Part shown: positions 1,286 through 18,884 of the stretch, one piece after another | How the letters are laid out: each line of letters starts with the position of its first letter | Numbering within the stretch: position 1 is the stretch's first letter | Assembly (NCBI GenBank): GCA_965205675.1 | Contig: OZ242186.1 | Coordinates: 1,120,001 to 1,184,000 of the forward strand | Source: Nitrosopumilus sp. | GTDB taxonomy: Archaea > Thermoproteota > Nitrososphaeria > Nitrososphaerales > Nitrosopumilaceae | Direction: 5' to 3' | Length of the DNA: 64,000 nucleotides | Notes under the pieces: generated by a model | The model's database searches: none | Told to the model about the DNA's origin: nothing | The model's input: only the letters and a program-made list of their open reading frames with translations | Position numbers and translations under genes: made by a program

Positions 1286-1287
1286 GA

Positions 1288-2877
1288 TCAGATGTACTCT
1301 GAGAGTGTTTTTGCTACTTGTTTTCGTCCGATATCTGAAATGAATGGTCCTATTTTTGGCCCTTTAGATGTCCCAAGTATGATTTGGTATAATATTTTAA
1401 AGAAATCTTTTGGCTGCATGCCATTTGATTTTGCAATTTGGTATATTGTATTTTGAATGTCTTCTAGTTCTGAGTCTCCTCCCAACACGTCTACAAGTAA
1501 TTTTAGTGCCTTTTTTGCAGTTTCATCTAAATCTATTTTTATTTTTTCTTGTTCATTAAATTCATTTGAATAATTGCCTGCAAGTTCTATGAGTTTTTCT
1601 ATTTCTGTTTCTGGTGATTTGATTACCCTGTAATCTAATAATTTCTTCATTATTCTTTCAGTTCTATTTTCTTTGAATATTTTTGCCAATTCAATTAATA
1701 ATCTATAGTTTACATGTGTGCTTGATTGTTTTGGTGGATTTAAGAGATTTACATATTCATATAATCCTTTAGATTTTATCAACTTTGCTTGATTCTCTAC
1801 TTTGATTCGTTCAAAGTAAATGTCTTCTAATTCATTATATTCGTTCATAAGCGATGGAATATCATCAAATCCTAATTCTCTTGCACCTGTAATTCTTTTG
1901 TAAAGTAATAGTAAGATTGATTTTGGACTACCAAACTCTAACCATTTTTGTGCAGTAATTACATTTCCTAATGATTTTGAAATTTTCTTTCCCCCTTTAT
2001 CAAGAAACATTTCATATTTTACATGGTGTGGATGTGGGAACTCTAAAATTTCATCTGCTACCCAATCATTTACTTTGACTGAGTCCATGATGTCTTTTCC
2101 ATATGCTTCAAATCTAATATCAAATGCAGTCCATCTTGCTGCAAATTCTACTTTCCATGCTAATTTTCCCAGGTCTTTTCTAATATCTGCCTCTCCTGTG
2201 TGACCACATCCTTTGACTCTCTTTGAGCTAATTTCCGCATCATGACAAGTGTACTTTACTTTCTTTTCATCTGTAATGTATTCTGAGGCTTCTGCAGTAT
2301 AGAGACGATTACAATTTGCACATACTGGAAAATATGGCAAGTATTTTTGATATTTTTCTTGTCCCACAAGTTCTGAGATTTTATCTCCAATTTTTGTACT
2401 GTTTGCTAGGATTGTGTGGATTTGTTCTTTTAGCAATCCTTGCTCGTACGTGTCTTTTGCTCTTCTAAATTCATATTTTATTCCAACTTTGTCTAATCCA
2501 TCCAGTAAAATACTACTCATATGCATCCCATACGAATCATGACAACCGTAAGGATCTGGAATTAATGACACTGGTTTTGCAATATGTTCTTCTAATCCAA
2601 ACTCTTGCATTCCTTCTGGAATTTTCCGTAGTCCGTCTAAATCATCTGAATATGCTATCAATTCTGATTTATATCCTAAATTTTCTAATGCTAGTTTAAC
2701 ACCATATGCTCTAACTGCATCTCCTAAACTTCCAATGTGTGGTATTCCTGATGCGCCCAATCCACTTTCTACTCGGAGTGTATCTGTATTTCTACCAAGA
2801 ATTTTTTCACGTTTTAATAATTCTGAAGCTAATTTATCAATCCAAGTTCCTTTTCCAATAATTTTCTGCTCCATCAT
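1288..2877 (-). CDS. lysS: Class I lysyl-tRNA synthetase
   Basis: SGIPHIG (HIGH-like), KISKSLG (KMSKS-like), GKLAWKVEF, GPKIGPF. Confidence 0.95.
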   Translation of the reverse strand: MMEQKIIGKGTWIDKLASELLKREKILGRNTDTLRVESGLGASGIPHIGSLGDAVRAYGVKLALENLGYKSELIAYSDDLDGLRKIPEGMQEFGLEEHIAKPVSLIPDPYGCHDSYGMHMSSILLDGLDKVGIKYEFRRAKDTYEQGLLKEQIHTILANSTKIGDKISELVGQEKYQKYLPYFPVCANCNRLYTAEASEYITDEKKVKYTCHDAEISSKRVKGCGHTGEADIRKDLGKLAWKVEFAARWTAFDIRFEAYGKDIMDSVKVNDWVADEILEFPHPHHVKYEMFLDKGGKKISKSLGNVITAQKWLEFGSPKSILLLLYKRITGARELGFDDIPSLMNEYNELEDIYFERIKVENQAKLIKSKGLYEYVNLLNPPKQSSTHVNYRLLIELAKIFKENRTERIMKKLLDYRVIKSPETEIEKLIELAGNYSNEFNEQEKIKIDLDETAKKALKLLVDVLGGDSELEDIQNTIYQIAKSNGMQPKDFFKILYQIILGTSKGPKIGPFISDIGRKQVAKTLSEYI

Positions 2878-2886
2878 TTCTTTTCA

Positions 2887-4470
2887 CTAGTTCAATGTTT
2901 TAGACATGTATGGCCCATATAACGAATACCCTAATTTTTGATAATATTCTCTTGTCCCTACTGCACTAATCACTAGTAATTTTTTTACATCAAATTCTTC
3001 TTTAGATATTTTTTCTGCTTCTTTCATTAGATTTTTACCCAGTCCGGCGTGCTGAATTTCTTCTTCTGTCTTTTCTCCAAGCTTTAATGATTTTCCATAT
3101 ACATGAATCTCTCTTACTATGCATGTATTTTGATTAATTTCATCTCTGTGTGCGTCACTGCTTGGCTTTCTTAATCTTAAAAATCCATAAATTGATTCAT
3201 TCTTATCTTCATACGACAAGAACACTTCTTTTCCTCCTGATGAATTATAATCAATTCTATTTAATTTCAAATCTCTGTTTGTTTTTTCTTTTGTCAGCCC
3301 TGCCTCTCTACATCTGATACATTTACAAGATAATCCCTGTTTGGCAAGATTTTGATGTACGATTTGTCTCAAATTCCCAGATTTTGGACCTGCGATAATC
3401 TCTCCAGGAGATATTTCTCTTTGTACTCTCATAATTCTGACCCATTTTGGAACATTTCTTTTTGCTTCTGTTAGTACATTGATCATGTCTTCATCTGAAT
3501 ATGGCGTGTACTTTCCTTGTTTGTATTCTTCATACAATGGCGTATTTTCAATGACTAGTGATGGATAAATTTTCAGCATGTCTGGACGTAATTGCGGGTC
3601 TGAAAATAACTTTTTAAAATCTGCAACGTCTTCTTCGGGTTTCATGGTGGGCAATCCAGGCATCATGTGTGCCACTAACTTGTAACCGGCATCTTTTGAG
3701 ATTTGAAATGATTCTACTACGTCATTGTAATTGTGACCTCTGTTGACTATTTTGTATACTCTTTCTTGTAATGATTGGACTCCGATCTCTATTCTTGTAA
3801 TTCCATAACTTAACATTAAATCCACGTGCTCTTTTTTGCAATAATCTGGCTTTGTTTCAATGGTAAAACCTACATTTCTTATTATTGCATGTTCATTGTT
3901 GGTTTTTGCTTCTTCTAAATTTTTAGAATCCATTACATTTAATGCATCATAGCATGATTTTATGAAATCTTTTTGATAGTCTTTTGGCATAAATAGAAAT
4001 GTACCCCCCACAATTACAATTTCCATTTTAGATGGGTTGTGACCAAACGCAACTAGTTTTTCAATTTTTGATGCAATTTGTAATTTGGGATCAAACTCAT
4101 TTTGAATTGCATTTAGTGACGACGGTTCTTTTCCGGTATAACTGTTGGGCGAATTAAATTCAATCCCTCCCGGACAATATGTACACCGTCCATGGGGACA
4201 AGCATATGGTTTGGGCATTAATGCTACTATGGATACTCCTGATGCTGTTTTTGCAGGTTTCCGCATTAACACTTTTTTTAGTTTATCAAAATCTGATTCT
4301 TTTACCATTGATAATATTTCATAATTTTTAGGAATTCTTTCCAATGCATATTTTGTACAGATTTTTATGATTTCTTCTCTTACTTGTTTTTTACTTGGTT
4401 CTTGAATTGTTAAAAGATTTTGTGTGATTTCATCACATGCTTTTAAAATAACAGGGTCAAGCTTGTTCAT
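2887..4470 (-). CDS. elp3: Elp3 tRNA U34 carboxymethyl synthase (radical SAM + KAT)
   Basis: CPHGRCTYCPGG, ETKPDYC, LKIYP, REIHVYG, QHAGLG, ISAVGTREYY. Confidence 0.95.
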   Translation of the reverse strand: MNKLDPVILKACDEITQNLLTIQEPSKKQVREEIIKICTKYALERIPKNYEILSMVKESDFDKLKKVLMRKPAKTASGVSIVALMPKPYACPHGRCTYCPGGIEFNSPNSYTGKEPSSLNAIQNEFDPKLQIASKIEKLVAFGHNPSKMEIVIVGGTFLFMPKDYQKDFIKSCYDALNVMDSKNLEEAKTNNEHAIIRNVGFTIETKPDYCKKEHVDLMLSYGITRIEIGVQSLQERVYKIVNRGHNYNDVVESFQISKDAGYKLVAHMMPGLPTMKPEEDVADFKKLFSDPQLRPDMLKIYPSLVIENTPLYEEYKQGKYTPYSDEDMINVLTEAKRNVPKWVRIMRVQREISPGEIIAGPKSGNLRQIVHQNLAKQGLSCKCIRCREAGLTKEKTNRDLKLNRIDYNSSGGKEVFLSYEDKNESIYGFLRLRKPSSDAHRDEINQNTCIVREIHVYGKSLKLGEKTEEEIQHAGLGKNLMKEAEKISKEEFDVKKLLVISAVGTREYYQKLGYSLYGPYMSKTLN

Positions 4471-4526
4471 AAATGATCATTTTGATTTGGACATAAATTC
4501 GTTAAATAATTTGATATATTTCGTAT

Positions 4527-4877
4527 CTATCGACGCCTAGATATCCTTCTTTTGGCTATCTTTTTAGCGGGTTTTCTCTTTACTACCTTTTTCTTTACTA
4601 CCTTTTTCTTTACTACCTTTTTCTTTACTATAATCTTTTTAGCGGGTTTTCTCTTTACTACCTTTTTCTTTACTACCTTTTTCTTTACTACCTTTTTCTT
4701 TACTATAATCTTTTTAGCGGGTTTTCTCTTTACTACCTTTTTCTTTACTACCTTTTTCTTTACTACCTTTTTTACCATATTTTCTTTGATATTTTTTAAT
4801 TCGTTTAGTTCTAATTGGATTTTTTTAATCTCTTCAATCATTTCTTTTTTAAATAATTCATTGCTTATTTCGGACAT
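4527..4877 (-). CDS. Lysine-rich histone H1-like pentapeptide-repeat protein
   Basis: Short N-terminal coiled coil, then KKKVV/KRKPA/KKIIV pentamers and an Arg-rich tail. Confidence 0.7.
   Translation of the reverse strand: MSEISNELFKKEMIEEIKKIQLELNELKNIKENMVKKVVKKKVVKKKVVKRKPAKKIIVKKKVVKKKVVKKKVVKRKPAKKIIVKKKVVKKKVVKKKVVKRKPAKKIAKRRISRRR
4555..4776. repeat. Hierarchical tandem repeat: 15-bp units in a 75-bp higher-order period
   Basis: GCGGGTTTTCTC at 4567, 4642 and 4717; TTACTACCTTTTTCT subunits. Confidence 0.9.
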
Positions 4878-4941
4878 GAGTTAAACTAGAGAATTTTCTG
4901 TGTAATTTAAGACTTTTTGAGAATCTATTCTGTTCTTATAT

Positions 4942-6180
4942 CTATACAGTGTTTTCTGTAGATGGATCTCCTTCTCGTTTTTGTTCTTTTCTATATTCCA
5001 TCTTTAACCATATTGGAGTAATAATTGTTGTAACTGCCACCATTATTACAATTGTAGAATATACGGATGTTGATAGAACTCCTGCTGTTACGCCCACGCC
5101 GGCCACAATCAACCCGACTTCCCCTCTAGAAATCATTCCTATCCCTACTCTCATTCCTTGTGCCTTGCTTTTCAAAAAGAACATGGCAGGTAGTCCACAT
5201 CCAAATAACTTTGTTACGATTGCTATTACAATAATTGCTCCACTTAGTATCAGAATATTCAAATCTACTGCTCTTAGATCTACTTGCGCTCCAATTATTG
5301 CAAAGAATAATGGTGCAAAAATCAATCCTATTTTGCCAATAAAGTTCTCTACTTTCTCAAATACTTTGGTAGTTGACAAAGCCATTCCTACTGCAAATGC
5401 ACCTACAATCGGTGAAAGTTCTAAGAGTCCGGCTACTGCTGCAGCACCAAAGAACGCTGCAGTAGCTATCCCTTCCACACTGCCTTTTGCTTTCCACAGT
5501 CTTGGTGTGATTACTTTTGGAATTATTATAACGGCTGTAATCAGCATTATTGCAAAGAATCCTAATACTTTCAAAATTGTTACTGTTACTTCAGTAATGT
5601 CTATGCTCTCAACTCCTCCATCTGAACCAGTAATGGATATTACTACTGACAAGACTGCAATTGCTAAAATATCATCTACCACTGCTGCTCCAATTATCAA
5701 TCTAGCTTCGGGAGTTTTGATTTTTCCAAATTCGTTTAACACTTGAATTGAAATTGCAATACTTGTGGCAGTAAGTGCTGTTGCAATCAACATTGATTCT
5801 AATGCCTCAAATCCAAATATCCCAAATACTGCCAATCCTGCAAAAAATGGGACTATTACTCCCAATGTTCCTACTGTAAATGATGCTTTACCTCCTCTGA
5901 GAAATTCTTTCGGCGTCATTTCCAATCCGGCCATAAACAAAATAACAATTGCTCCCATCTCCCCTAAAATTTTGATTTCATCATTGATGTGTAACACTTG
6001 TTTGCCATCGATTACAAAAAATTGTCCTAATGCAAATGGACCTATGATCATACCTGCAAGTAATTCTCCTAATACAATTGGAAGTTTTAATCTGAGGAAA
6101 AGTTCTGCCATTAATTTAGCCGCAAATAAAAGTATGCCTACGCCTATGATTGTTTCAATGAAATGCGCCTCTGCTGCCAT
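4942..6180 (-). CDS. Cation:proton antiporter (CPA2 family)
   Basis: Multi-TM; GELLAG, LFMAGLE, ATSIAIS, AAVVDDILA, GMISRGEV. Confidence 0.92.
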   Translation of the reverse strand: MAAEAHFIETIIGVGILLFAAKLMAELFLRLKLPIVLGELLAGMIIGPFALGQFFVIDGKQVLHINDEIKILGEMGAIVILFMAGLEMTPKEFLRGGKASFTVGTLGVIVPFFAGLAVFGIFGFEALESMLIATALTATSIAISIQVLNEFGKIKTPEARLIIGAAVVDDILAIAVLSVVISITGSDGGVESIDITEVTVTILKVLGFFAIMLITAVIIIPKVITPRLWKAKGSVEGIATAAFFGAAAVAGLLELSPIVGAFAVGMALSTTKVFEKVENFIGKIGLIFAPLFFAIIGAQVDLRAVDLNILILSGAIIVIAIVTKLFGCGLPAMFFLKSKAQGMRVGIGMISRGEVGLIVAGVGVTAGVLSTSVYSTIVIMVAVTTIITPIWLKMEYRKEQKREGDPSTENTV

Positions 6181-6426
6181 CTTCTCTCTTAATTGATGAA
6201 AAATCTGTCATATAAGGTGATACTAGATCGAAAATTATTTTGTTGTTGTTAAATTAAATCGTTCCAGATATAGAGTTATTATTCAGATCAGGAAAAATTC
6301 TGATATGGGATTCAAAAAAAGGCATTAACAAATGTGTAGAATATGAGAAGAAAATGAAAAAAGATCCTAACAAAACGGCATGTGTAGCAAATGCTGCTCA
6401 GTCCAAGATCGTATTGAATCAACGTT

Positions 6427-7311
6427 CAACTCATCTCAAAACCCTACAACACATCAAAATAATGCAATGTTATCTAACCCAAGATAATTTTCTGCCTACT
6501 CTTTCATATCTGATTGCGGTTCTTGCAGAATCCACACTTGAGCCATGCAAAGAATCTCTCCACAACATAACGAATCGTGTTATATTTTTTGCATGATTTA
6601 TTTTTTGCATGATTTATTTTTTATTGCTCCAGTATTATTTTTTCTAAGTGGAATATAGGGATTGATGTTTCTGTTTCTCAAATAATTTCTAATTGATTTT
6701 GCATCATAACCTTTGTCTGCATAAACTGAAACAATTTCCCTCACCATCTACAAAATCAGAGATGTTTTCTATTACATCAGCTAATTTTGTGGAATCATGG
6801 AATATTTGCAGAATCCATTGCAATAGATATCGGTAAACCGTTTTGTTCTACTGCAACATGAATTTTTGTGCCTGTAATCTCTTTGAAACCATCTCTTCTT
6901 ATATCGTTACCCCTTTTTTGCAGCAACCCTTGAGGAGTAAGCTGGTACTTTTTGTGAATTAATCTTACCAGATGAGTAAGCTGGTTTTATTGCAGATTTT
7001 AGAATATTTCATCCATATTCCTCTTTGTTGCCATCTGTTTAATCTTTTAATTTGCAGTATTCATCACCATACTTTTTTGGCATGTCATCCCATCTACACC
7101 CAGTAGTTAGGACGTAGATTATTCCATTGATGATTTTTCTATCTTCATCTCTCAGTCTGTCTGTTTTTGTAGGTGAAGGAACATGTAGTTCTGATATTTC
7201 CGTTGTTTGTTTGTCAATTCTTGATATTTTACGGACTAGCTTGACTGTGATTGTTCATAGATCCAAATGATCATCAATCATTTACTAAATGAACTGTTTT
7301 GAGATGAGTTG
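6427..7311 (-). mobile_element. Decayed IS5-family element with frameshifted transposase
   Basis: 16-bp terminal IRs CAACTCATCTCAAAAC / GTTTTGAGATGAGTTG; minus-strand fragments IINGIIYVLTTGCRWDDMPKKYG, GTKIHVAV, YADKGYDA, RYVVERFFAWLK; internal 18-bp duplication near 6590-6620. Confidence 0.88.
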
Positions 7312-7428
7312 TTTATACAAAGAATTAATCAATGAGATGCGTCCTTAATCAAGTCTTGATTTGCTAGCAGACTTTATTTTTGACTAAAATAATTTTATGT
7401 GTAAATTAAATCAAAAATAATCCTTTTG

Positions 7429-7578
7429 TTATCTTTGCGTGTTTTCTGTTATTTTTTTTAATTCAGAAAGAATCAAAACCAATATCTCCTTCTCGCTTAA
7501 TTTCAAAAGTTCTGTTGTTTCTTCTTCTGTAAATTTGATTTCTTCATTTATTTTTTCATATGTTTTAAGATCAACCAT
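7429..7578 (-). CDS. Putative 49-aa small protein
   Basis: ATG-TAA ORF MVDLKTYEKINEEIKFTEEETTELLKLSEKEILVLILSELKKITENTQR, below the ORF-track cutoff. Confidence 0.4.
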   Translation of the reverse strand: MVDLKTYEKINEEIKFTEEETTELLKLSEKEILVLILSELKKITENTQR

Positions 7579-7739
7579 GTATCAAAACAAGTTACAGGAT
7601 TTATTAAATTTATCAATAATTGATTCAGCATAGATTTCTAATCAAAAAATATCATAGTTTCTAATCTCAAGTGTTGTTTTTGAGTATTTTTTGAGTTTTT
7701 ACTATACAATTTTTGTAGAATTTACAAAAAACAAAGGAA

Positions 7740-7922
7740 TTGCATAATACAAAAAAATACAAAGATAAAAATAATAAACCACTTTTAAGGATTGATTGTT
7801 TGCTTGTTGTGTATTTTCAGCACAATAATGAGGTCATAGTTACAACTAATGACGGTTTGTTAAATCAAACCATAATTGGTTTAGGTGGAAAAACATGTAC
7901 ATTTTTTGATATGATTACATAG
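7740..7922 (+). pseudogene. Possible C-terminal remnant of a PIN-domain protein
   Basis: RIDCLL...IVTTNDGLL...LGG resembles PIN C-terminal acidic motifs; no convincing 5' half. Confidence 0.3.
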
Positions 7923-8147
7923 AAATTTGATTGTGTAACATTTTAAAAAACATACTATCATCGTATCATATTTAGAACATTGAATGTGAGACCTGCCTCT
8001 GAATTTGTATTTCTATGTGGCAATTTCACATATGGCTTTAATTGCTTATAATGTTCATTTGTGGTTTTTCGCCATTTGAATCAATCTTTGAATAATCCCT
8101 TTATTTTGAATAGTAATATTCATCTTTGATTATGTTATACCTTATAC

Positions 8148-8339
8148 ATGACTCCGAAGATCAACTGTCCTAATTGCCAACAAAAGGAATGGCTTGAAAA
8201 TAACGAGCTAAGCTACCTCCCAACGGTTATGAAAATGGATGACGACAAGTATGCTGCTGATACCAATAATGGTGTTCATGTTAGACTGTGGCGATGTAAC
8301 AATTGCATGTATCTTATGCAATTTTGGGAACCTGATTAA
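8148..8339 (+). CDS. Small zinc-ribbon protein
   Basis: CPNC...CNNC, 63 aa. Confidence 0.75.
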   Translation: MTPKINCPNCQQKEWLENNELSYLPTVMKMDDDKYAADTNNGVHVRLWRCNNCMYLMQFWEPD

Positions 8340-8414
8340 TTCAAAACCAATGTAATTCTTACAATATATTTTATTTTTTTATCAATTAATTTGAAGAAAA
8401 ATTTTAGATGATCA

Positions 8415-8428
8415 AAATGTAAATAAAC
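8415..8428 (+). promoter_or_regulatory. Promoter-like motif AAATGTAAATAAAC shared with the paralog promoter
   Basis: Same 14-mer lies 22 nt upstream of ATG 8451 and 21 nt upstream of ATG 15256 (15278-15291, minus). Confidence 0.6.
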
Positions 8429-8450
8429 AATACGTTATTTACTTTAAGGA

Positions 8451-9500
8451 ATGGCAGGAAAAACTAAAGCAAGTACTAAAAAAGATCTTCAAGTCAAAAT
8501 CGCAAATCTTGAAGCCAAAATAGCTAAATTGTCAACACAGCTTGAAGTTAAACCAGCTGAAAAACCTGCAGAAACTAAACCAGCTGAAAAACCTGTAGCA
8601 ACTACCAAACCAAAAGGTACACTGCCTAAAGGAATGGGCACAAAACCTGCAGAAACTAAACCAGCTGAAAAACCTGTAGCAACTACCAAACCAAAAGGTA
8701 CACTGCCTAAAGGAATGGGCACAAAACCTGCAGAAACTAAACCAGCTGAAAAACCTGTAGCAACTACCAAACCAAAAGGTACACTGCCTAAAGGAATGGA
8801 TGCAAAACCTGCAGAAACACCAAAACCATCTGAAACTACATCACAGCCTCCCGCAACTGTACAAGACGCATTAGAGAATGCATACATGACTGCTGCAATG
8901 ACTGATTTCCATCAGTACAGAGCCAAAGTCACAGGTTATTCTCCAGCTCCTAACAGATACTTTGTTAGATTAACTGCTCCTGTAGGAAAAGTTCCAACTA
9001 CAAACTGGAATGATCAAAAATCAACAGTGACTGGTTACACAGCAGTCTCAAACCAGTACTATGCAACAAGAGCAAGACTAGCATATCATCCATCTGATAA
9101 AACATTTGGAAGTTTTAGTGGAGTCAATATGTCAGTTGAAGGTGCAAGTGCACAAACTCAAACACAACAAGCACCACCTCCAGAACCACCAAAACCTGCA
9201 AAAGGCACTCTTCCAAAAGGTATGGCGCAAACACAACAGGCACATCCTCAGCAACAATCAACATATCTCACAAATGATGGAAAATCTAGAGACGAAAAAC
9301 TAGCCGACTATGAAGCAGATTACTTGCAAAGATTAGAACAACAAAAGATAGATGAAGAAAAAGCCTTTCAAGAATTACTTGAAACAGAAGCTAAAGCACA
9401 CGCTACAGCCAGTAGAGGTACATTACCCAAAGGATTTGAACCAAAATCTGAATCTGAAGCACCAAAAGCATCTAGAGGCACTCTACCAAAAGGTTTCTGA
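8451..9500 (+). CDS. Pro/Lys/Thr-rich repeat protein with GTLPKG[MF] motifs (long paralog A)
   Basis: 349 aa: N-terminal coiled coil, three 27-aa repeats, aromatic core, acidic helical extension, ends GTLPKGF. Confidence 0.85.
   Translation: MAGKTKASTKKDLQVKIANLEAKIAKLSTQLEVKPAEKPAETKPAEKPVATTKPKGTLPKGMGTKPAETKPAEKPVATTKPKGTLPKGMGTKPAETKPAEKPVATTKPKGTLPKGMDAKPAETPKPSETTSQPPATVQDALENAYMTAAMTDFHQYRAKVTGYSPAPNRYFVRLTAPVGKVPTTNWNDQKSTVTGYTAVSNQYYATRARLAYHPSDKTFGSFSGVNMSVEGASAQTQTQQAPPPEPPKPAKGTLPKGMAQTQQAHPQQQSTYLTNDGKSRDEKLADYEADYLQRLEQQKIDEEKAFQELLETEAKAHATASRGTLPKGFEPKSESEAPKASRGTLPKGF
8561..8798 (+). repeat. 81-bp tandem repeat, about 3 copies
   Basis: AAAACCTGCAGAAACTAAACC starts at 8561, 8642 and 8723. 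Confidence 0.92.
8723..9221 (+). repeat. 499-bp inverted repeat, arm 1
   Basis: Reverse complement of 14648-15146; no mismatch seen by eye. Confidence 0.92.
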
Positions 9501-9530
9501 CCTTTTTACAATCTTTTCTTTTACTTATTT

Positions 9531-9995
9531 TTATTTTGAATTTAGAAATTCTTGTAATACTTCTTTAGAATGTTCTGCAGGTTTTACTTTGGGATATATT
9601 TTGAAGATTTTTCCTTTCTCATTTACAAGGAATGTACTTCTCATAACTCCCATGTACTCTCGACCCATGAATTTTTTCTTACCCCAAACCCCAAACAAAT
9701 TTGAGATTTCTTTGTCTACGTCTGCTAACAGTGTATATTTGATTCCCATCTTGTTACAGAATTTTTTATGAGATTCAACATTATCTGGACTGACTCCTAT
9801 AATTTCTATTCCTTCTTTTTGGAATTTTTTATAGTCTTTAGAAAATCCGTCAGCTTCTGTGGTACATCCGGGTGTAAAATCTTTTGGATAAAAGTAAATA
9901 ACGTGTTTTTTGCCCTTAAAGTCACTTGATTTTACCTTCTCCCCATTTGCATCATTTACTACAAATTTTGGAACAGAATCTCCTTCAGAAATCAT
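9531..9995 (-). CDS. bcp: BCP-type peroxiredoxin
   Basis: YFYPKDFTPGCTTEA, GVSPD, RSTFLV. Confidence 0.93.
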   Translation of the reverse strand: MISEGDSVPKFVVNDANGEKVKSSDFKGKKHVIYFYPKDFTPGCTTEADGFSKDYKKFQKEGIEIIGVSPDNVESHKKFCNKMGIKYTLLADVDKEISNLFGVWGKKKFMGREYMGVMRSTFLVNEKGKIFKIYPKVKPAEHSKEVLQEFLNSK

Positions 9996-10098
9996 GTATT
10001 CTTCATTGGATTGTTCTATAATTAATTACTTTTTGAGATCAGTTGATCAGAAATCTAGGTCGAATCTTTTATATGGATATGCACAAGGCTTTAGCTTG

Positions 10099-10809
10099 AT
10101 GGCTAATCCAAGAGCATATCTTGCAGAAGCAATTGCAACTTATGGTTTGGTATTCTTTGGTCCTCTTTCAGTAATTCTTGCAGTTTCTGCATTTGGCGAA
10201 GAATTGACAACACAATCTGTATTGTTCATTTCGCTTGGACACGGCGGTGCCATTGCTTTGATGGTTTATGCATTCGGACATGTTTCTGGTGCTCACATTA
10301 ACCCTGCAGTTACCATTCCTATGATGATTACAAAAAAAATCGGAATTGTAGATGGAGTTGGATATATTATTTCACAATTAATTGGCGCTGTAGCCGCAGC
10401 TGCAACCCTTATGGTAATCTTACCTGAACTTGGTGCAAGAGTTAACTTTGCAACTCAAGGCGGTCCAAGTGATTTAATCAATAATAGTGTGGGTTCTGGA
10501 TTTGCAATTGAGGCAATCTTGACATTCTTCTTAGTAACTGTAATCTTTATGACAGCGGTTCACAAAAAAGCGTCTCCAGGATTACATGGATTATCAATTG
10601 GCGGTATGGTATTTCTAATTCACTTGATTGCCGTACCATTAACTGGCGCATCTGTAAATCCTGCAAGAACATTTGGTCCTGCATTAATTTCCGGATTCTG
10701 GGAATTTCATTGGTTATATTGGGCAGCCCCAATTTTGGGGGGAATTATTGCAGGTCTGATAATGAATTATGTTTATACCAAACCTGCAGAAAAAGAAGTA
10801 CAATCCTAA
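10099..10809 (+). CDS. Aquaporin (MIP family)
   Basis: SGAHINPAVT and GASVNPARTFGP; start placed at MANPRAYL. Confidence 0.93.
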   Translation: MANPRAYLAEAIATYGLVFFGPLSVILAVSAFGEELTTQSVLFISLGHGGAIALMVYAFGHVSGAHINPAVTIPMMITKKIGIVDGVGYIISQLIGAVAAAATLMVILPELGARVNFATQGGPSDLINNSVGSGFAIEAILTFFLVTVIFMTAVHKKASPGLHGLSIGGMVFLIHLIAVPLTGASVNPARTFGPALISGFWEFHWLYWAAPILGGIIAGLIMNYVYTKPAEKEVQS

Positions 10810-10842
10810 CATTTTTAAAAATTTAAACTTTAATTTTTCTAT

Positions 10843-11280
10843 ATGACTTTTGCTGAAGATATTTCTAAAATGTTTGAGGATGAATCTCAAAAACTTGTAG
10901 TTTTGCTTGATACTGCATACTCAAAAACTGATATGAATATTCATGAAATTGTTGAGACATACTATCAAATCATGAATGTCTCGTCTATGACTATAATGCT
11001 GAAACAACAATCTAGTCTTGAGCCTAAGGAACTAATGGAAAAAATTTCACAAATTGAAAATTTAATTTCTGAAAGATTTGACTCTGTTATTCATCCAAAA
11101 ATTATGGCAAAATTATCCAAATCTATTCAAAACTTGACAAAGAATTTACAATCTGGAAATTCTATTGAAAAGTCAAAAGAACAAACAGAATTAGATGCAA
11201 AGTTGTTTGATGAATTGCGTCAAACAATGAGTACTAAAGAATTTGTTGAACAATACGAGAATGGAATTTCCCATGATTAA
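10843..11280 (+). CDS. Hypothetical helical protein
   Basis: 145-aa ORF overlapping the next gene start. Confidence 0.7.
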   Translation: MTFAEDISKMFEDESQKLVVLLDTAYSKTDMNIHEIVETYYQIMNVSSMTIMLKQQSSLEPKELMEKISQIENLISERFDSVIHPKIMAKLSKSIQNLTKNLQSGNSIEKSKEQTELDAKLFDELRQTMSTKEFVEQYENGISHD

Positions 11281-12094
11281 AGAACTTGCAAAAAAATTGG
11301 TTGAACTAAAAAAAGAATTTGTTCAAATCTATGATGGTAATAGTCAAATGCAAGAAATAATTCCAAAATCTAAATCGGAATTATTCCCAATAGAGCAATC
11401 TCACTTAGAATTGCTACATAAATTTGTAGCAAAGAATCCTATCTACTATAATTCCTTTGAAAAACAAATCAATTCTATTGATTGTGTCGTATATGAAGGT
11501 GACATTAACAAATATTGGTTAAACAGTATCCAACACGGTTCAAGTAAAGCTCCTTTTTCACCCACGTGGATCCTGTCTGCTTATATTGGTTCGTTATTTG
11601 CAAAAGAATTGAGATATTCTGAAATAATTGATATTGGTTCTGGTGATGGCCGTATTGCATTTTGTGCAAAAATCTTAGACATGACTTCTTACAGTATAGA
11701 ACTTGATGATATGCTTGTAGCTTTACAAAATACTCTGACTTCTATATTGGATTTTCATCCAATCTGTTCTGATGCTGTATCTTTTGATTACTCTTCTTTG
11801 AATCTAGCATGTCCAATATTTTTCATCGGGGGCTTGGCACAAATGGGCGGGGTTTCGCTTGCAACTGGAGTTTTAAATAAAGTCAATTCTATTTCTACTC
11901 TCAAGAAAAAAATTGGTTGGGCGTTTCCTGGAACCCTATCCAAAAAATATACTCTTGATCCAAAAAATGAGGCAGGGTGGGGAACTTTAATTGAAGGCAA
12001 TCATCTCAAATTTGTTCAGAGTGTTTCATTGCCCACTGCTTGGACATTTCATGACTCTGATGATACTCCATATATTTTTGCAAAATCTAACTAA
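11273..12094 (+). CDS. Putative SAM-dependent methyltransferase
   Basis: IIDIGSGDGRIA motif I; SIELD. Confidence 0.7.
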   Translation: MIKELAKKLVELKKEFVQIYDGNSQMQEIIPKSKSELFPIEQSHLELLHKFVAKNPIYYNSFEKQINSIDCVVYEGDINKYWLNSIQHGSSKAPFSPTWILSAYIGSLFAKELRYSEIIDIGSGDGRIAFCAKILDMTSYSIELDDMLVALQNTLTSILDFHPICSDAVSFDYSSLNLACPIFFIGGLAQMGGVSLATGVLNKVNSISTLKKKIGWAFPGTLSKKYTLDPKNEAGWGTLIEGNHLKFVQSVSLPTAWTFHDSDDTPYIFAKSN

Positions 12095-12132
12095 TAGTAA
12101 TCCAAATTAAGCGTAAATTTCCAAAACTTTTC

Positions 12133-12207
12133 GGACTCGTTGCATAGCTTGGATAGTGCGATTGCTTGCGGAGCAATAGGTCGCCGGTTCGAATCCGGTC
12201 GGGTCCG
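12133..12207 (+). tRNA. tRNA-Arg(GCG)
   Basis: Acceptor GGACTCG/CGGGTCC, anticodon stem ATTGC/GCAAT with loop TTGCGGA, T-arm GGTTCGAATCC; no encoded CCA. Confidence 0.95.
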
Positions 12208-12361
12208 TATGATTTTTTACATAATATGAAAATGATACTTGCATCATATTGTGATCTACTACATTCAACTCATTTCAATACTCCCCAATACATCAAAATT
12301 TGGAGTGGACCCCTGTTTTTAGTACCACTTTTTGCATAATCTTACATACAGTCTGATTCAT

Positions 12362-13183
12362 TTATGTTTTCATCTCCCATAACTCCATGAATTCATCAGG
12401 TATAAGATATCCCAATGCAGAATGAATCCTGGAACCATTGTAATCGATTCGTGCTTTCTCTAGAGCAACTTCGGCTTCCTGATAGTTTGCAAACTCGTAC
12501 CTCCACAAGTATTCCTTCTTGAGTGTTTTGTGGAATGATTCGACATGTCCGTTTTGTTCTGGCGTGTGGTGCCAGATGAATTCGTGTCTTATTCCAAGTA
12601 GAACAACTGCTTTTCTGAAATCTCGGCTGTTGTATTGCGAACCGTTGTCCGTTCTGAGAATCAGTTTTGTGCAATCAGGCTTTGCAGTAGCTACTGCATT
12701 AATGATGCTGTCAATTGCAGTGCTCTTTGGAGCTGCCACATCAAATGAATGCCAAATCCATTTCCTGCTAAATGCATCAATCACGTTAAAGCAGTAGCAC
12801 CATCTGTCAACCCCACACCAGACATATGTGATGTCTGTCTGCCACAACTGGTTTGGTGCATCAGGCTTGAATAATGTTCTGGCAGATTTGATGATGTCAT
12901 TTTTGGTCTTTTTAGGCTCAATCCAGCCCAATTTGTGAAATATTCTTCTGATTTGTTTTCTGTTTACAGGCTTGTTCAGTTCCCTTGAGACTTGGGATGC
13001 CATGCGTCTGGTTCCATAAGTTGGCCTTTGTTTTCCAATCTTTTGAACTACATCAGTTACTGCAGGATCTGTCTGAATCCTTCTTGGTGACTTTGAGTAA
13101 TACCATTTGGATTTTGAGACTCCAATTAATAACAATGACTTGTTCAAACTGATGTGTTTGTTCAGTTGATTCACTGCAGTCAT
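12362..13183 (-). CDS. IS3 transposase OrfB (DDE integrase core)
   Basis: YGTRR, PNQLWQTDITY, RTDNGSQY, PEQNGHVESFHKTLK, HSALGY. Confidence 0.93.
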   Translation of the reverse strand: MTAVNQLNKHISLNKSLLLIGVSKSKWYYSKSPRRIQTDPAVTDVVQKIGKQRPTYGTRRMASQVSRELNKPVNRKQIRRIFHKLGWIEPKKTKNDIIKSARTLFKPDAPNQLWQTDITYVWCGVDRWCYCFNVIDAFSRKWIWHSFDVAAPKSTAIDSIINAVATAKPDCTKLILRTDNGSQYNSRDFRKAVVLLGIRHEFIWHHTPEQNGHVESFHKTLKKEYLWRYEFANYQEAEVALEKARIDYNGSRIHSALGYLIPDEFMELWEMKT

Positions 13184-13470
13184 CTTTTCTGGTTCTCCAA
13201 CGTTTTTTTTAAAATGTCATTGGCAATTGTGATCTCGCCGATTAGTTTTTTGAGGGAATCATTTTCCTTTTGCAGATTCTTGCAGACATCTCCGTTTGGT
13301 GTGCCATTTAATGATGCCTTGCAACCTTCTACAAATCGTTCCCTCCATTGGCAGAATGTCTGTGGATGAATATTGTACTTTCTGCACAACTCTGCAGTTG
13401 CAATGTTTGTGTTTAGTGACTCTAAAACCACTCTTGACTTTTCTGCTGATGTGAATTTGCTCTTTACCAT
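13180..13470 (-). CDS. IS3 transposase OrfA (HTH)
   Basis: AELCRKYNIHPQTFCQW plus leucine-zipper-like segment; ATGA overlap with OrfB; A8 run at 13203-13210. Confidence 0.9.
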   Translation of the reverse strand: MVKSKFTSAEKSRVVLESLNTNIATAELCRKYNIHPQTFCQWRERFVEGCKASLNGTPNGDVCKNLQKENDSLKKLIGEITIANDILKKTLENQKR

Positions 13471-13899
13471 GAGGGTAAGCCTCCCAAGTTATCTGAAAAG
13501 TGTATGTATGGGACTGGTCCTACTCTAGAGGGGACCAGACCAAATTGATGCCAAGTAAACAAGTTCCAGATAATTCTCGCAATTCTTTTCATATCTTATT
13601 GCAGTTCTTGCAGAATCCACACTTGAGCCATGCAAAGAATCTCTCCACAGCATAACAAATCTTGTTATATTTTTTGTATGATTTATTTTTTGTTGCTCCG
13701 TCATTATTTTTTCTAAATGAAACACATGTATTCAATAACAAAAATTCATCACCCTATTTTGAACTCGATTTACATACATTGTAGATTCAAGTTTAAATTT
13801 CAGGAATTAGCATAATTTGGAAGATTTTGGGTCATGAATATTTGTTAGACAGTATAGTATTTCGGGATCTGAGTATCTCGTTTGTTATCTTTTTGGCAT

Positions 13900-14090
13900 A
13901 ATACACATCAGATGGCGTCTCCATCTTATCTAGATTCAGTGTATCATGTGGTCTTGTGTGGTTGTACCAATACATAAACTGCCACTGATTCAAAGTATTT
14001 TATCTTACACTCAAAGACATCCCAAAACTTTTCTAATTTGCCATTTGTCTGCAGATGTCTCACTCTTGTATGTGGATGCTTTACATGGTT
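13900..14090 (-). pseudogene. Integrase-core transposase remnant (IS481-like)
   Basis: Minus-strand fragments RVRHLQTNGKLEKFWDVFE and FMYWYNHTRPHDTLNL separated by a frameshift. Confidence 0.65.
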
Positions 14091-14309
14091 TCTCATTAGT
14101 TATTGTTCAAAGTCTACTGGCTTGTTATGATCCAAGGGTTTTACATTTGACATGATTATTCATTGAATAAAATTATGGTAATGGTTCATGCCCTCTTTTA
14201 TATCCTGAAAATTTACGATATTCGTAATCAGTTAGTGGTGTTTGACATCCGCATTTACAAAATGTTTTCATGGTTTTTATAGATTCCACACATACAAAAA
14301 GTTTAGGAA

Positions 14310-14385
14310 TCTATCTGAGACTTGGGCATAATTGATTCTATTTTTAGTCATCTCTTAAATTATTCAAATAAAAAAACTAAGGATT
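14310..14385 (-). repeat. Dispersed ~80-bp repeat, also at 52420-52500 (probable IS-end remnant)
   Basis: ATCCTTAG...TTTGAATAATTT...TAGAATCA.TTATGC.CAAGTCTCAGATA in both places. Confidence 0.7.
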
Positions 14386-14641
14386 TTTACATCCTTATTT
14401 CATTACAACATGAAAAATATGAAAATCCTTGAGCAAAATTCTATCTGAATTCTTGACTTTCTGGTCTTTTAATTTCATTATCCACCTTATCTTTTTATCA
14501 CCTAATTTTACCATAGATATGCCAGTGTATTTTCATATACGATAGTATGGCCATAATACTTTCCTAGTTAAGGGGTGAACTAATTTGAGGATAATAGAAG
14601 ATCAACAATATAGAAAAATGAAAATAAAGGATGTTGTTGAA

Positions 14642-15256
14642 TTAGAAACCTTTTGGAAGAGTGCCTTTTGCAGGTTTTGGTGGTTCTGGAGGTGGTGCTT
14701 GTTGTGTTTGAGTTTGTGCACTTGCACCTTCAACTGACATATTGACTCCACTAAAACTTCCAAATGTTTTATCAGATGGATGATATGCTAGTCTTGCTCT
14801 TGTTGCATAGTACTGGTTTGAGACTGCTGTGTAACCAGTCACTGTTGATTTTTGATCATTCCAGTTTGTAGTTGGAACTTTTCCTACAGGAGCAGTTAAT
14901 CTAACAAAGTATCTGTTAGGAGCTGGAGAATAACCTGTGACTTTGGCTCTGTACTGATGGAAATCAGTCATTGCAGCAGTCATGTATGCATTCTCTAATG
15001 CGTCTTGTACAGTTGCGGGAGGCTGTGATGTAGTTTCAGATGGTTTTGGTGTTTCTGCAGGTTTTGCATCCATTCCTTTAGGCAGTGTACCTTTTGGTTT
15101 GGTAGTTGCTACAGGTTTTTCAGCTGGTTTAGTTTCTGCAGGTTTTACTTCAGCTGGTTTTGATGTTAGCTGATTAGAAAGTTGATTTAGCTTTGTTTCT
15201 AATTCGGCAATCTTTTTTTCAAGATCTGCTTTGGTTTGTTTTTTAGCAGCTGCCAT
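14642..15256 (-). CDS. Pro/Lys/Thr-rich repeat protein with GTLPKG[MF] motifs (short paralog B)
   Basis: 204 aa; core identical to 8451-9500, different N-terminal coiled coil, ends GTLPKGF. Confidence 0.85.
   Translation of the reverse strand: MAAAKKQTKADLEKKIAELETKLNQLSNQLTSKPAEVKPAETKPAEKPVATTKPKGTLPKGMDAKPAETPKPSETTSQPPATVQDALENAYMTAAMTDFHQYRAKVTGYSPAPNRYFVRLTAPVGKVPTTNWNDQKSTVTGYTAVSNQYYATRARLAYHPSDKTFGSFSGVNMSVEGASAQTQTQQAPPPEPPKPAKGTLPKGF
14648..15146 (-). repeat. 499-bp inverted repeat, arm 2
   Basis: Reverse complement of 8723-9221. Confidence 0.92.
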
Positions 15257-15352
15257 AATTTGGATGAATAATCCGGGGTTTATTTACATTTGGGTTGATT
15301 ACGCCAACCAATTTTGATCAAGTTTTATATGCTAATTCACATATTTTATCAC

Positions 15353-15727
15353 ATGGATGACTTTGAAAAAGAATTTCCAGATTTCGATTGGAAAAACATA
15401 CCAGCCTACAAACATCCAGGAGGTAAAGATTGTCCATGTCCAAAACATGAATACATTAGAGAACAGATCAATTTCACAAAACAAGTTAATGAAAAAGGCA
15501 AAGAACCATCCAAAATCACTCTAAAATTTTGCCCCGATCATTACAAAGTATACATGGATGAAGTAATTCCGGCAATGCCATTAAAATACAGAATTCTAAC
15601 AAAAATTGCACTAAAGATAGGAGCAATTCAAGTTGAACAATTAAAATACATGGAATCAGAATTATGTTTTTACTGCAAATTCGGATCTGGCGGTCATGAC
15701 AAAAAGACTGAACTTCCACCGATGTAG
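15353..15727 (+). CDS. Hypothetical Cys/His-containing protein
   Basis: CPCPKH, FCPDH, CFYC; start placed at MDDFEK. Confidence 0.7.
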   Translation: MDDFEKEFPDFDWKNIPAYKHPGGKDCPCPKHEYIREQINFTKQVNEKGKEPSKITLKFCPDHYKVYMDEVIPAMPLKYRILTKIALKIGAIQVEQLKYMESELCFYCKFGSGGHDKKTELPPM

Positions 15728-15768
15728 AATCGAGTTAAGCTTATACTTGATCTGACTAGAGAATCAAT

Positions 15769-17214
15769 GTGAGGATAAAAGATATCAGAGATTTTATTGC
15801 AGAGCTTGAAAAACAAGGAGAATTAAAGAGAATCAAAATAAAAGTAGATCCAGATTTAGAAGTTGCTGAAATTATGAGACGAGAAATGTACTCCAATGGA
15901 CCAGCAATACTTTTTGAGAATGTAAAAGGATACGATATGCCAATTTTAGGAAATGCGTTTGGTTCCATGAAAAGACTAGAGATAGGATTAGAGATGACAG
16001 ATTTTACTGAAATTGGTCAGCGTATAGCAGATATGACAAAGATGGATATTCCATCAGGGTTGTTAAATAAAATTAAAAAACTTCCAGAACTTTCTAAAAT
16101 TACTGCATCATTTCCAAAAACAGAAACCAGCGGACCAGTAACAGAGGTTACATCAAAAGATGATGCATCATTTGATGATTTGCCAATTTTAAAATCATGG
16201 CCTGATGATGCAGGTAGATTCATCACGTTAGGATTAGTTGCAACAAAACATCCAGAGACAGGAATTAGAAATCTAGGCGTTTATAGAATGCAAATTGTTG
16301 ATAAAACTCATGCATTAATGCATTGGCAAAAACACAAAAGAGGGGCACAACATAGTGACATTTCAAAAGATAAAGGGGAAAAAATACCAACTGCGATAAT
16401 TATCGGAGGCGAACCAGCCACAATCTTTTCAGCAATTGCACCAGTCCCTGAAGGACTAGACAAATATCTTTTTGCAGGAATTACAAGAAAAGAAGGAATC
16501 AAAACTGTGAAATGTAAAACTATTGATTTAGATGTTCCAGCTAACGCAGAGATTGTTTTAGAAGGATATGTAGATCCTGTAGATATTAGAGATGAAGGCC
16601 CATTTGGAGATCATACAGGATACTATACACCAGTTGAACCATACCCAACATTTACGCTAACAGGGATTATGAGGAGAAAAGATCCAATATACGTTACAAC
16701 AGTGGTAGGAAAACCAATTCTAGAAGATGCATTCATTGGCAAAGTCATTGAACGTTCATTTTTACCATTAATTCAGATGTTTCATCCAGAAGTAATAGAT
16801 TTCAGTATGCCAGCAGCAGGATGGTTCCAAGGATTTGCAATTATCTCAATAAAGAAAAGATATCCAGGTCAAGCAAGAAAAGTCATGATGGGTCTTTGGG
16901 GTATGGGGCAATTATCACTCACAAAGATGTTCGTGGTAGTAGATGGAGACATCAACGTACATGATATCAACGATGTAATCTGGGCTATAACTACAAGATC
17001 AGATGCAGTAAGAGATACAATGATTATCAACAACACACCTACAGACACATTAGATCCAGCATCACCATTAGTGAATCTAGGATCTAAGATGGGAATTGAT
17101 GCAACACAGAAAACCAGAGAAGAGGGATATGAAAGAGAGATTCAACAACAAGTCAAAGTTGATGATAAAACAAAGAATCTAGTAGATTCAAAATGGTCCA
17201 GTTATGGATTATGA
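15769..17214 (+). CDS. UbiD-family decarboxylase (menaquinone biosynthesis, MqnL-like)
   Basis: RNLGVYRMQ, EGPFGDHTGYY, GSKMGIDAT; adjacent to an MqnC-like gene. Confidence 0.92.
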   Translation: MRIKDIRDFIAELEKQGELKRIKIKVDPDLEVAEIMRREMYSNGPAILFENVKGYDMPILGNAFGSMKRLEIGLEMTDFTEIGQRIADMTKMDIPSGLLNKIKKLPELSKITASFPKTETSGPVTEVTSKDDASFDDLPILKSWPDDAGRFITLGLVATKHPETGIRNLGVYRMQIVDKTHALMHWQKHKRGAQHSDISKDKGEKIPTAIIIGGEPATIFSAIAPVPEGLDKYLFAGITRKEGIKTVKCKTIDLDVPANAEIVLEGYVDPVDIRDEGPFGDHTGYYTPVEPYPTFTLTGIMRRKDPIYVTTVVGKPILEDAFIGKVIERSFLPLIQMFHPEVIDFSMPAAGWFQGFAIISIKKRYPGQARKVMMGLWGMGQLSLTKMFVVVDGDINVHDINDVIWAITTRSDAVRDTMIINNTPTDTLDPASPLVNLGSKMGIDATQKTREEGYEREIQQQVKVDDKTKNLVDSKWSSYGL

Positions 17215-18327
17215 TACAGAAATAGGATTGTAAAAATTATCTCTTTCTTCTACTTGATAACCAATTTGGTGAATGGCATCCATAATTATTTTATCGGTAA
17301 GTTCTGTTGAACGTGCGCCAGTACATGAAACAACTTCTTCGCCAATCAGAGTACCACCAAAATCATCAGCACCATATTGTAAGGCAAGTTGAGCCATACC
17401 AACACCATTAGTTAGCCAAGAAGATTGAATGTGGGGAATTAAACCATCAAGAACAAGTCTAGATATTGCAATCATTTTCAAAAGTTGGATTCCGCCAGTA
17501 CCATATTCAACAATGCCTTCTTTATGCATCAAAGTATTGTTTGGTTCAAAATTCCACGGAATAAATGCCATAAATCCCCTAGTTTTCTCCTGAAGTTTTA
17601 CAATTTTTGAAAAGTGTTCAACAATGTCATTGTTATTCTCCACATGGCCATACATCATTGTTGCAGAACCAGGAACGCCAAGAGAATGGGCTTCATCCAT
17701 AATTCTAAGCCAATCATCACTAGATATTTTCTTTGGACTGATGATTTCTTTAATGGAATCAGTTAAAATTTCAGCACCAGCTCCGGGGATAGATTGCAAT
17801 CCCGCATCTTTTAGTCTAGATAGAATTTCTTTGGTTGATGATTTTTCAATTCTTGCAATCATATCAATTTCAGATGTAGATAATCCATGAACCCCTACTA
17901 GAGGGAATTTCTCCCTAATCATTCTAAATGCATCTTCATAATATTCAATCCTTAGATTTGGGTTATGACCGCCCTGAATCAAGATTTGACGAATCTTAAA
18001 CATATCATAAGATGTTTTTACTCTAGATTCAATTTCATCAAGAGTTAACGTGTAAGAATCTTCAGCTCCAGGGGATCTATAAAATGCACAAAACTTACAA
18101 TCAGTAATACAGACATTAGTATAATTTAAAATAATATTATTTACAAAAGATGCTTTTTTGCCAAATTGTTTTCTTGTAAGATGACCAGCAGTAAGACCCA
18201 TCAAATGAACATCATCAGATTCTAACAATCTCAAACAATCCTCAGGTCCAGGTCTTTGACCGTTTAGGGAATTTTCTAAGATATCTTTAATATCGCTTTT
18301 TTGTATCTGTTTGGTTGCTTGACTCAA
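17209..18327 (-). CDS. mqnC: Radical SAM, CofH/MqnC family (cyclic dehypoxanthinyl futalosine synthase-like)
   Basis: NYTNVCITDCKFCAF, QGGHNP, PGAGAEIL, HIQSSW, GADDFGGT. Confidence 0.8.
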   Translation of the reverse strand: MSQATKQIQKSDIKDILENSLNGQRPGPEDCLRLLESDDVHLMGLTAGHLTRKQFGKKASFVNNIILNYTNVCITDCKFCAFYRSPGAEDSYTLTLDEIESRVKTSYDMFKIRQILIQGGHNPNLRIEYYEDAFRMIREKFPLVGVHGLSTSEIDMIARIEKSSTKEILSRLKDAGLQSIPGAGAEILTDSIKEIISPKKISSDDWLRIMDEAHSLGVPGSATMMYGHVENNNDIVEHFSKIVKLQEKTRGFMAFIPWNFEPNNTLMHKEGIVEYGTGGIQLLKMIAISRLVLDGLIPHIQSSWLTNGVGMAQLALQYGADDFGGTLIGEEVVSCTGARSTELTDKIIMDAIHQIGYQVEERDNFYNPISVS

Positions 18328-18884
18328 GTGACATTCATCCTTTGGAATTTCTATTTAATCCTTGATAGAAATAATGAACTACAAAAATTAAACCAAACGA
18401 GAATTTGTGCCCAATTTTAATAAACGCAATTGTAAAATCCCGATTTTGCAACCAGTCTAGAGAAAACAACACAACAAGAAATAGCAGAGACTGAGGATCA
18501 GGCAAGGGAAAGAGGATCTGTTTAACTTTATTTCCTAATTCTTCAATCTAGGTTCAATTACAATCAAAAAAGATTTGGATCGTAATTTCTGCAACAATCC
18601 CATATCGCAGACCAAAAGTACGCCTTACATGGACCATTCCATGCATTACATCCAGATTCTAAGATAGTCTCTAAAGGGCCAGACAAATTAAATAACAACA
18701 AAGTTGGACATTCATTTGTTTACTATACTGATTCATGTGTTATGATAACTGTACTGTTTAGAAATACAGTTGGTGTTGCATATAGGCAATTTTAAGGAAT
18801 TATCAAGGGAATGCTTTGGAAAGAAAATTCTTTGAATTTTTCTCTTACATGCAAGAGAATCATCTTTTTTATTTTAACTAGATT

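Follow-up and report, generated by a model that had tools for sequence, protein, structure and literature searches.

The A/B locus

The window analyzed here is a stretch of 64,000 nucleotides (nt) from a Nitrosopumilus genome, referred to as G000 (C1:1120001-1184000), which was assembled as a single contig with a completeness of 99.88%. It contains two paralogous genes, called A and B below, that are convergent in this genome and that each carry one arm of an exact inverted repeat of 499 nt. The genes and the parts of them that matter for the repeat are as follows.

8451-9500, + strand: gene A, 349 amino acids (aa); its A-type N-terminal coiled coil is followed by a PAEK-rich linker, the core and an acidic helical extension, and it ends in two RGTLPKGF motifs
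14642-15256, - strand: gene B, 204 aa; its B-type N-terminal coiled coil is followed by a single linker repeat and the core, and it ends at GTLPKGF
8723-9221, + strand: arm A, a putative 499-nt conversion tract, comprising the last linker repeat, the conserved core domain of ~90 aa and the sequence up to GTLPKG
14648-15146, - strand: arm B, the exact reverse complement of arm A
8561-8803, + strand: three 81-bp tandem repeats, encoding 27-aa units that end in GTLPKGM; units 1 and 2 are identical, and unit 3 (97%) lies inside arm A

A repeat search of the window returned the arms as an inverted repeat of 499 nt that is 100% complementary, with a spacer of 5426 nt, and in a string comparison arm A equals the reverse complement of arm B letter for letter. 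Exact alignment thereby bears out the first-pass annotation, which had reported a 499-bp inverted identity without mismatch. At both ends of the arms the identity breaks off sharply, and the flanks are unrelated or 59% identical, the latter figure being that of the N-terminal modules (55 of 93 aligned nt). The 3′ end of the tract is the point where the homology of the two genes stops: after GTLPKG, gene B has a phenylalanine codon and a stop, while gene A continues with methionine and ~90 further residues. When gene A was compared by BLASTN with the whole genome of 2,011,361 bp, the core was found at these two sites only.

Identity of this kind could come from an assembly or polishing collapse that made differing cores look alike. 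Polishing can homogenize repeats of such size, and fragmented short-read genomes of the genus (G004, G005, G008 and G020) have their gene matches at contig ends, as expected if identical cores break assemblies. Such an artifact is nevertheless highly improbable as the source of the identity, because seven of 11 separate two-copy assemblies hold exact A/B stretches of 397-530 nt; G000 is moreover a single, nearly complete contig. The Logan contigs of three sequencing runs (X2-X4) contain no variant letters inside the arms. They leave the bin at 14847-15107 without assigned cover, probably as contigs fitting both arms were placed on the first one.

Cores, N-termini and tails across the genus

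Comparison of the two genes within and between genomes separates the history of the core from that of its surroundings. Over 261 nt of the core, A and B of the same genome are 100% identical in seven of 11 two-copy genomes and 95-97% identical in the other four, whereas cores of different genomes are 62-96% identical. The longest exact A/B stretch measures 499 nt in G000, 522 nt in G021, 530 nt in G003, 456 nt in G019, 397 nt in G017, 481 nt in G009 and 496 nt in G006; in the remaining four it is 207 nt (G012), 153 nt (G018), 110 nt (G010) and 89 nt (G002). In a maximum-likelihood tree of the cores, A and B are sisters in all 11 two-copy genomes. Constraining the A genes to one clade lowers the log-likelihood by 527 units, and the approximately unbiased (AU) test rejects that topology (p=7.7e-5).

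The N-termini behave differently. A tree of the N-terminal module (~31 codons, 93 nt) separates 9 A-type from 12 B-type rows with a support of 96/99, the paralog labels in it having been set from the N-terminal motif itself and the four rows of G002 and G018, which have a different, RGRP-repeat N-terminus, being omitted. These labels coincide with gene position and tail length in all nine two-copy genomes that have a coiled-coil N-terminus, and the tails and flanks are likewise paralog-specific in the relatives. Since the N-termini, which lie outside the tract, group by paralog, the duplication must be old. The trees agree with the first-pass annotation in this respect: it had taken the pair for an old duplication with a homogenized core, and had pointed to the grouping of cores by genome and of N-termini by paralog as the pattern to look for in relatives.

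In G000 the homogenized segment is a discrete tract with sharp ends, and the corresponding region is affected in the other genomes. Homogenization is equally strong in pairs that lie in tandem as in the convergent layout, and the identity therefore needs no switch.

The reading that we favor, at a probability of roughly 0.8 for its two parts together, is ongoing gene conversion of an old gene pair, combined with an accidental local inversion in the lineage of G000, rather than a purpose-built switch. Interlocus gene conversion would keep the linker-core segment identical within genomes in most species of the genus. Homologous recombination, presumably performed by the general machinery of the host (RadA in archaea), would repeatedly copy this segment from one paralog to the other, leaving the N-terminal module of ~31 codons and the C-terminal tail paralog-specific. 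We found no literature on gene conversion in Nitrosopumilus that concerns this locus, judged by titles and the openings of abstracts.

Arrangement of the pair

The surroundings of the pair were compared by fetching ~20 kb from each of 14 relatives and placing the window's open reading frames (ORFs) in them by tblastn. The relatives share a conserved order, in which a radical-SAM gene, UbiD and the 15329-ORF come first; B follows in divergent orientation, and after it a small Cys-rich ORF, A, bcp, aquaporin and two further ORFs. B and A lie in tandem on one strand in nine of the 14 (G003, G012, G019, G017, G006, G010, G002, G018 and G021); G009 is convergent like G000, and G014, G023, G024 and G007 have a single gene.

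The core has a match in 117 of 151 genomes of the genus. At least two of the listed matches fall on one contig in 51 genomes, with the copies on the same strand in 49 and on opposite strands in two, G000 and G009 (a hand count among the matches listed, 39 further matches being unlisted). On this count the convergent inverted-repeat layout is not conserved, and its breakpoints differ between the two genomes that have it. A and B are thus an old, genus-wide pair that normally lies in tandem in the order B then A, and its convergent form is rare and derived.

The spacer between B and A is a hotspot of insertion; in G021 it carries a gene resembling Na+/H+ exchangers (L031, 9435-10649). Distances of 5-27 kb separate same-strand copies in G142, G113, G162, G135, G154 and G141. 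At the other end of the conserved block, synteny stops directly past the tRNA-Arg(GCG) gene in every relative examined and the sequence that follows varies, so that this tRNA gene forms the boundary of a variable stretch.

Origin of the convergent layout

The features that bear on how the pair became convergent in G000 are listed here in the order of the window.

8098-8107, no strand: left inversion junction, from which the window is homologous to the spacer between B and A in tandem relatives (CCTTTATTTT)
8148-8339, + strand: small Cys-rich ORF of 63 aa with two Cys pairs (CPNC ... CNNC) and no Pfam/NCBIfam match
12132-12208, + strand: tRNA-Arg (GCG), which closes the conserved part of the inverted block, homology to relatives extending to ~12207-12224
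12259-13732, + strand: truncated copy of a repeated element of ~890 bp (12259-12300 plus 13543-13732), split by IS3
12301-13542, - strand: IS3-family element (orfA 13180-13470, orfB 12362-13183) with a 4-bp AATT target duplication; a simple insertion
13717-14600, no strand: mosaic of repeat fragments, with an element of ~130 bp, a degenerate rve fragment (13832-14150) and repeats of ~140 and ~150 bp
14614-14630, no strand: right inversion junction, where homology to the 3′ flank of the relatives' gene B resumes ~25 nt past B's stop

In BLASTN comparisons with tandem relatives, window positions 8102-12224 align with the stretch of the relatives that starts at the B-A spacer and small ORF and ends at tRNA-Arg, and positions 14614-18418 align in reverse with the stretch bounded by B and the radical-SAM gene. 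The breakpoints lie outside the genes, one ~25 nt past the stop of B and the other just past tRNA-Arg. Each gene of G000 keeps its ancestral flanks on both sides of its arm, and the small ORF, which lies between B and A in tandem relatives, moved along with A in the inverted block. These alignments indicate that the convergent layout of G000 arose by a lineage-specific inversion of window positions ~8102-12224. This event, separate from the conversion, would have turned around the segment that runs from the small ORF through tRNA-Arg, so that A and B now converge and 2.35 kb of nested insertion-sequence remains lie at the right junction; conversion would have continued afterwards. As conversion is genus-wide and the inversion a separate event, the 499-nt inverted identity would be a conversion tract rather than a site at which a dedicated switch recombines.

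The breakpoint in G009 differs from that of G000, as the small ORF remained with B there. A tree of the 2.4-kb flank, otherwise poorly resolved, pairs G000 with the tandem G017 at 89/98. With different breakpoints and G000 grouping with a tandem genome, the two inversions are independent.

The inversion is associated with mobile elements. The right junction (12259-14613, 2.35 kb) consists of repeats throughout, the IS3 element being followed by fragments of at least four other repeats, and CCTTTATTTT occurs at each of the two junctions (at 8098-8107 and as the complement of 14621-14630). The signs of a transposition-mediated inversion are mixed: there is element debris at the right junction, the ~890-bp copies are direct and the duplication of CCTTTATTTT can be avoided by an alternative alignment. 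IS3 was considered as the agent of the inversion and rejected, as it interrupts the ~890-bp element with its 4-bp AATT duplication intact. A simple two-break reconstruction of the left flank was dropped: the region past tRNA-Arg is variable, and the neighborhood has been rearranged more than once among the relatives. G002 alone retains both the side and the orientation of the genes for ELP3 and a Na+/H+ exchanger. The 2.0-Mb genome of G000 is unusually rich in insertion sequences, and gene order near the locus differs from that of relatives in several steps.

Some points weigh against conversion followed by accidental inversion. The N-terminal tree, as said, takes its labels from the motif that it sorts. 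The mechanism of the inversion is left unexplained by IS3, whose intact 4-bp duplication marks it as a later simple insertion, and the two ~890-bp copies, being direct, are not inverted repeats that could have served; an ancestral near-repeat of CCTTTATTTT allows the junctions to be aligned without any duplication. The inversion could also be so recent that the identity stems from the tandem state, with no conversion since, and flipping of the interval may have a functional role in the population.

The last two points correspond to rival explanations. According to the first, a very recent event, either the inversion itself or a single overwrite of one copy, made the arms identical, and they will now diverge. 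An identity of 100% gives no clock, and among the matches listed no relative above about 90% core identity was found that could date the inversion. Against this stand the 481 exact nt that G009 keeps despite its independent inversion, the recurrence of homogenization in every lineage examined and the state of the right junction, whose layers of decayed, nested mobile-element fragments (73-94% identical to other copies) suggest that it is not brand new. We regard a very recent origin of the identity as quite unlikely. The second rival, a functional switch, requires a closer look at the arms and at crossovers within the core.

Crossovers, chimeras and the question of a switch

The first-pass annotation had proposed a candidate invertible locus, in which a crossover in the arms exchanges the C-terminal tails of A and B in frame and four proteins arise from two loci. 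Stated for G000, crossovers between the arms would flip 9222-14647 at a meaningful rate, independently of a recombinase, giving A-long, B-short, A-short and B-long isoforms within a clonal population. The geometry is suited to this: the arms are exact, in frame and convergent, and 499 nt at 100% is a long exact inverted homology, a substrate for homologous inversion of the type known from tuf genes. The convergent layout has, in addition, arisen twice independently.

Crossovers within the core have clearly happened in the tandem arrays of the genus. G014 and G023 have one gene each, which joins a B-type N-terminus to a long A-type tail, the product expected from deletion between direct cores. 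G149 (L045, 1447-5559) has four copies, among them two identical genes of 194 aa with an A-type N-terminus and a short tail; G160 (L046, 1269-5202) has three, one of them A-type with a short tail. Copies within these two arrays share 374-911 nt of exact identity. All four combinations of N-terminus and tail thus occur in the genus, and the swapped proteins must be tolerated. The four predicted proteins therefore do exist, as the first-pass annotation had foreseen, but they were made by unequal crossing-over in tandem arrays and not by inversion.

Other evidence speaks against a switch. The convergent layout is rare (two of 51 genomes among the matches listed) and arose through an inversion whose breakpoints do not touch the genes, and tandem pairs are just as homogenized; the proposal that the identity belongs to an invertible locus is not upheld by these results. 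Both convergent genomes, G000 and G009, were assembled unswapped, with each N-terminus joined to its ancestral tail and flanks. Pfam searches found no serine or tyrosine recombinase among the 18 ORFs at 266-18201, where there are only parts of the IS3 DDE transposase and housekeeping genes, so that the earlier statement that no dedicated invertase is visible holds. The genome also contains 14 near-identical copies of the 1.24-kb IS3 element, which are equally good recombination substrates.

Sequencing data were examined for both orientations. Three runs, in the form of Logan contigs, contain ~70% of the sampled words of the region. Among the Logan contigs of four runs none spans an arm, and no joints were reported at the arms. 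An arm-spanning pattern (the flank left of arm A, 499 N and either tail, in IUPAC code), which matches the window once, was found in 0 stretches of metagenome_contigs and 0 of genome_contigs, collections that may omit the records of G000 itself.

Nothing suggests selection for the convergent layout. The tuf genes of Salmonella, which are also inverted, make occasional homologous inversion of the interval plausible by analogy: crossovers would now and then invert 9222-14647, and any large population should contain some flipped molecules. We doubt that flipping occurs often enough to have biological importance, and an invertible locus as the explanation of the repeat is accordingly unlikely. There is a similarly slim chance that accidental inversion made a recombinase-free shufflon in G000 and, independently, in G009, in which case one culture would contain both orientations and all four isoforms. 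Conversion plus accidental inversion is retained as the preferred account below.

Relation to known systems

Loci that invert coding sequence by design include the shufflon of R64 with its recombinase Rci, the tail fibre region of phage Mu with Gin, and hsdS inversion loci, all of which have short specific sites, an adjacent site-specific recombinase and a conserved architecture. The A/B locus shares with them inverted repeats within coding sequence and the prospect that inversion would exchange 3′ gene segments in frame. It differs in having no such recombinase (among its 18 ORFs), arms that are 499 bp of ordinary coding homology, and a layout seen in two of 51 genomes. The resemblance is one of geometry only.

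Tandem gene arrays can evolve by unequal crossing-over. The occurrence of one, two, three and four copies in the genus, with identical cores and chimeric combinations of ends, is in keeping with this. In G000 and G009 the copies are inverted; unequal crossing-over therefore cannot act, and only conversion or inversion remains.

For the inverted geometry, the closest parallel is the tufA/tufB pair of Salmonella. These inverted paralogs are reported to co-evolve by homologous recombination that also inverts the region between them, the homogenizing recombination giving inversions in up to half of the events (PMC6735719). Both cases have inverted, near-identical genes that are kept alike by conversion (in the A/B pair, by our reading) without a dedicated recombinase, and in both a crossover inverts the segment between them. 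As far as that account describes them, the tuf genes are alike over their full length and inversion leaves the proteins unchanged, whereas the ends of A and B differ and a crossover would swap the C-terminal tails. The tuf arrangement is conserved, while the convergent A/B layout is rare and derived, and inversion is shown experimentally for tuf, while A/B is known here from assembled sequence.

The closest published archaeal parallel is the conversion of mtrA-1 and mtrA-2 in Methanococcales and Methanomicrobiales, where interlocus gene conversion is described as limited to one domain (PMC4632066). There too, according to that description, an old duplication of neighboring genes has kept one domain homogeneous per genome over long times while the remainder differs; the protein family and the archaeal phylum are others. 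Compared with mtrA as presented there, the A/B tract stands out by being nucleotide-exact over 400-530 nt in most species, by its one to four copies and by its crossover chimeras. The process is already known, and the A/B locus would be a further example of gene conversion.

What the locus adds is a view of this process in Nitrosopumilus. Homologous recombination there would be active enough to keep a paralog segment of 400-530 nt nucleotide-identical in most species while shuffling the ends at the same time, with one to four copies and all four combinations of N-terminus and tail. The locus may hence offer a way to follow conversion and crossover as they occur in nature, in archaea that are abundant worldwide and lack a genetic system. 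For annotation, identical cores would explain why short-read genomes of the genus break at the A/B gene, and the locus cautions against taking every exact inverted repeat within genes for a switch. If frequent flipping were true, it would represent an archaeal phase-variation mechanism born from ordinary recombination.

The A/B protein family

Proteins A and B belong to an abundant, uncharacterized family. Neither has a Pfam/NCBIfam match beyond a sub-threshold match to the coiled coil of Ribosomal_L29. A profile of the ~100-aa core found 95 cluster representatives at E<=1e-3 among 1.84 billion proteins, and a word-seeded search recovered 1328 proteins among 8000 scored candidates. The proteins of the latter search lack Pfam domains throughout; where they are named, the name is 'hypothetical' or, in several Nitrosopumilus species, 'trans-sialidase'. 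The NCBI label 'trans-sialidase' on Nitrosopumilus relatives was rejected as a mislabel: Pfam/NCBIfam searches gave no sialidase domain in A or B. We found no literature joining Nitrosopumilus with trans-sialidase. With protein B as the query, matches occur in 23 of 24 other Nitrosopumilus genomes and in none of 16 genomes of other genera of the order, a distribution by which the family appears confined to Nitrosopumilus and its relatives.

The family has a modular build. Its linker is rich in Pro/Ala/Glu/Lys, GTLPKGF motifs are reiterated and the core of ~90 aa is conserved. Distant representatives share this plan, with a basic N-terminus and coiled coil, a Pro-rich linker and a core with two WN.QK..VTGYT..SN.YFATR units, and often add an acidic helix and a terminal ..GTLPKGF. 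The modular build seems to be under selection. In G002 (L039) and G018 (L040), both paralogs carry PRGRPRKV repeats in place of the coiled-coil N-terminus, which we take to resemble AT-hook DNA-binding motifs and which would hint at a nucleic-acid link for the family.

Structure prediction of the core with AlphaFold2 reached a pLDDT of 41 from an alignment of 18 rows and of 62.6, with short helices only, from one of 44 rows. A Foldseek search of the PDB with the core model returned nothing at E<=0.001 (best E 5.8), and the ESM Atlas led back to the family itself, its single match being the 'putative trans-sialidase' cluster at 0.81, an uninformative result.

The interval between the genes and its flanks

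The remaining features of the interval and of the flank beyond gene B are listed below.

9531-9995, - strand: peroxiredoxin of the AhpC/TSA family (bcp-like; Pfam)
10087-10809, + strand: aquaporin of the MIP family (Pfam)
10843-11280, + strand: conserved hypothetical ORF, syntenic in relatives, with no family match
11243-12094, + strand: conserved ORF with no Pfam/NCBIfam match at E<=0.01
15314-15727, + strand: conserved ORF (15329-ORF), divergent from B and followed by a UbiD-family gene (15769-17214)

Pfam and the tRNA call agree with the first-pass annotation on the bcp gene, the aquaporin, tRNA-Arg and IS3; its 'methyltransferase', the ORF at 11243-12094, is unconfirmed, as this ORF has no Pfam/NCBIfam match at E<=0.01. 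The flank with the ORF at 15314-15727 and UbiD is unrearranged in all 14 relatives.

Mobile elements make up the rest. A full copy of the ~890-bp element lies at 6425-7319, in direct orientation relative to the truncated one. The IS3 element has 13 other full-length copies in the genome at 98.4-99.0% identity (14 in all), plus partial copies. The repeat at 13717-13862 (~130-140 bp) has 17 other genome copies at 90-97% identity and looks like a miniature inverted-repeat transposable element (MITE) or the end of an element. A short repeat at 14303-14450 (~20 copies at 75-84%) and another at 14442-14599 (several at 73-83%) form the last 300 bp ahead of the 3′ flank of gene B.

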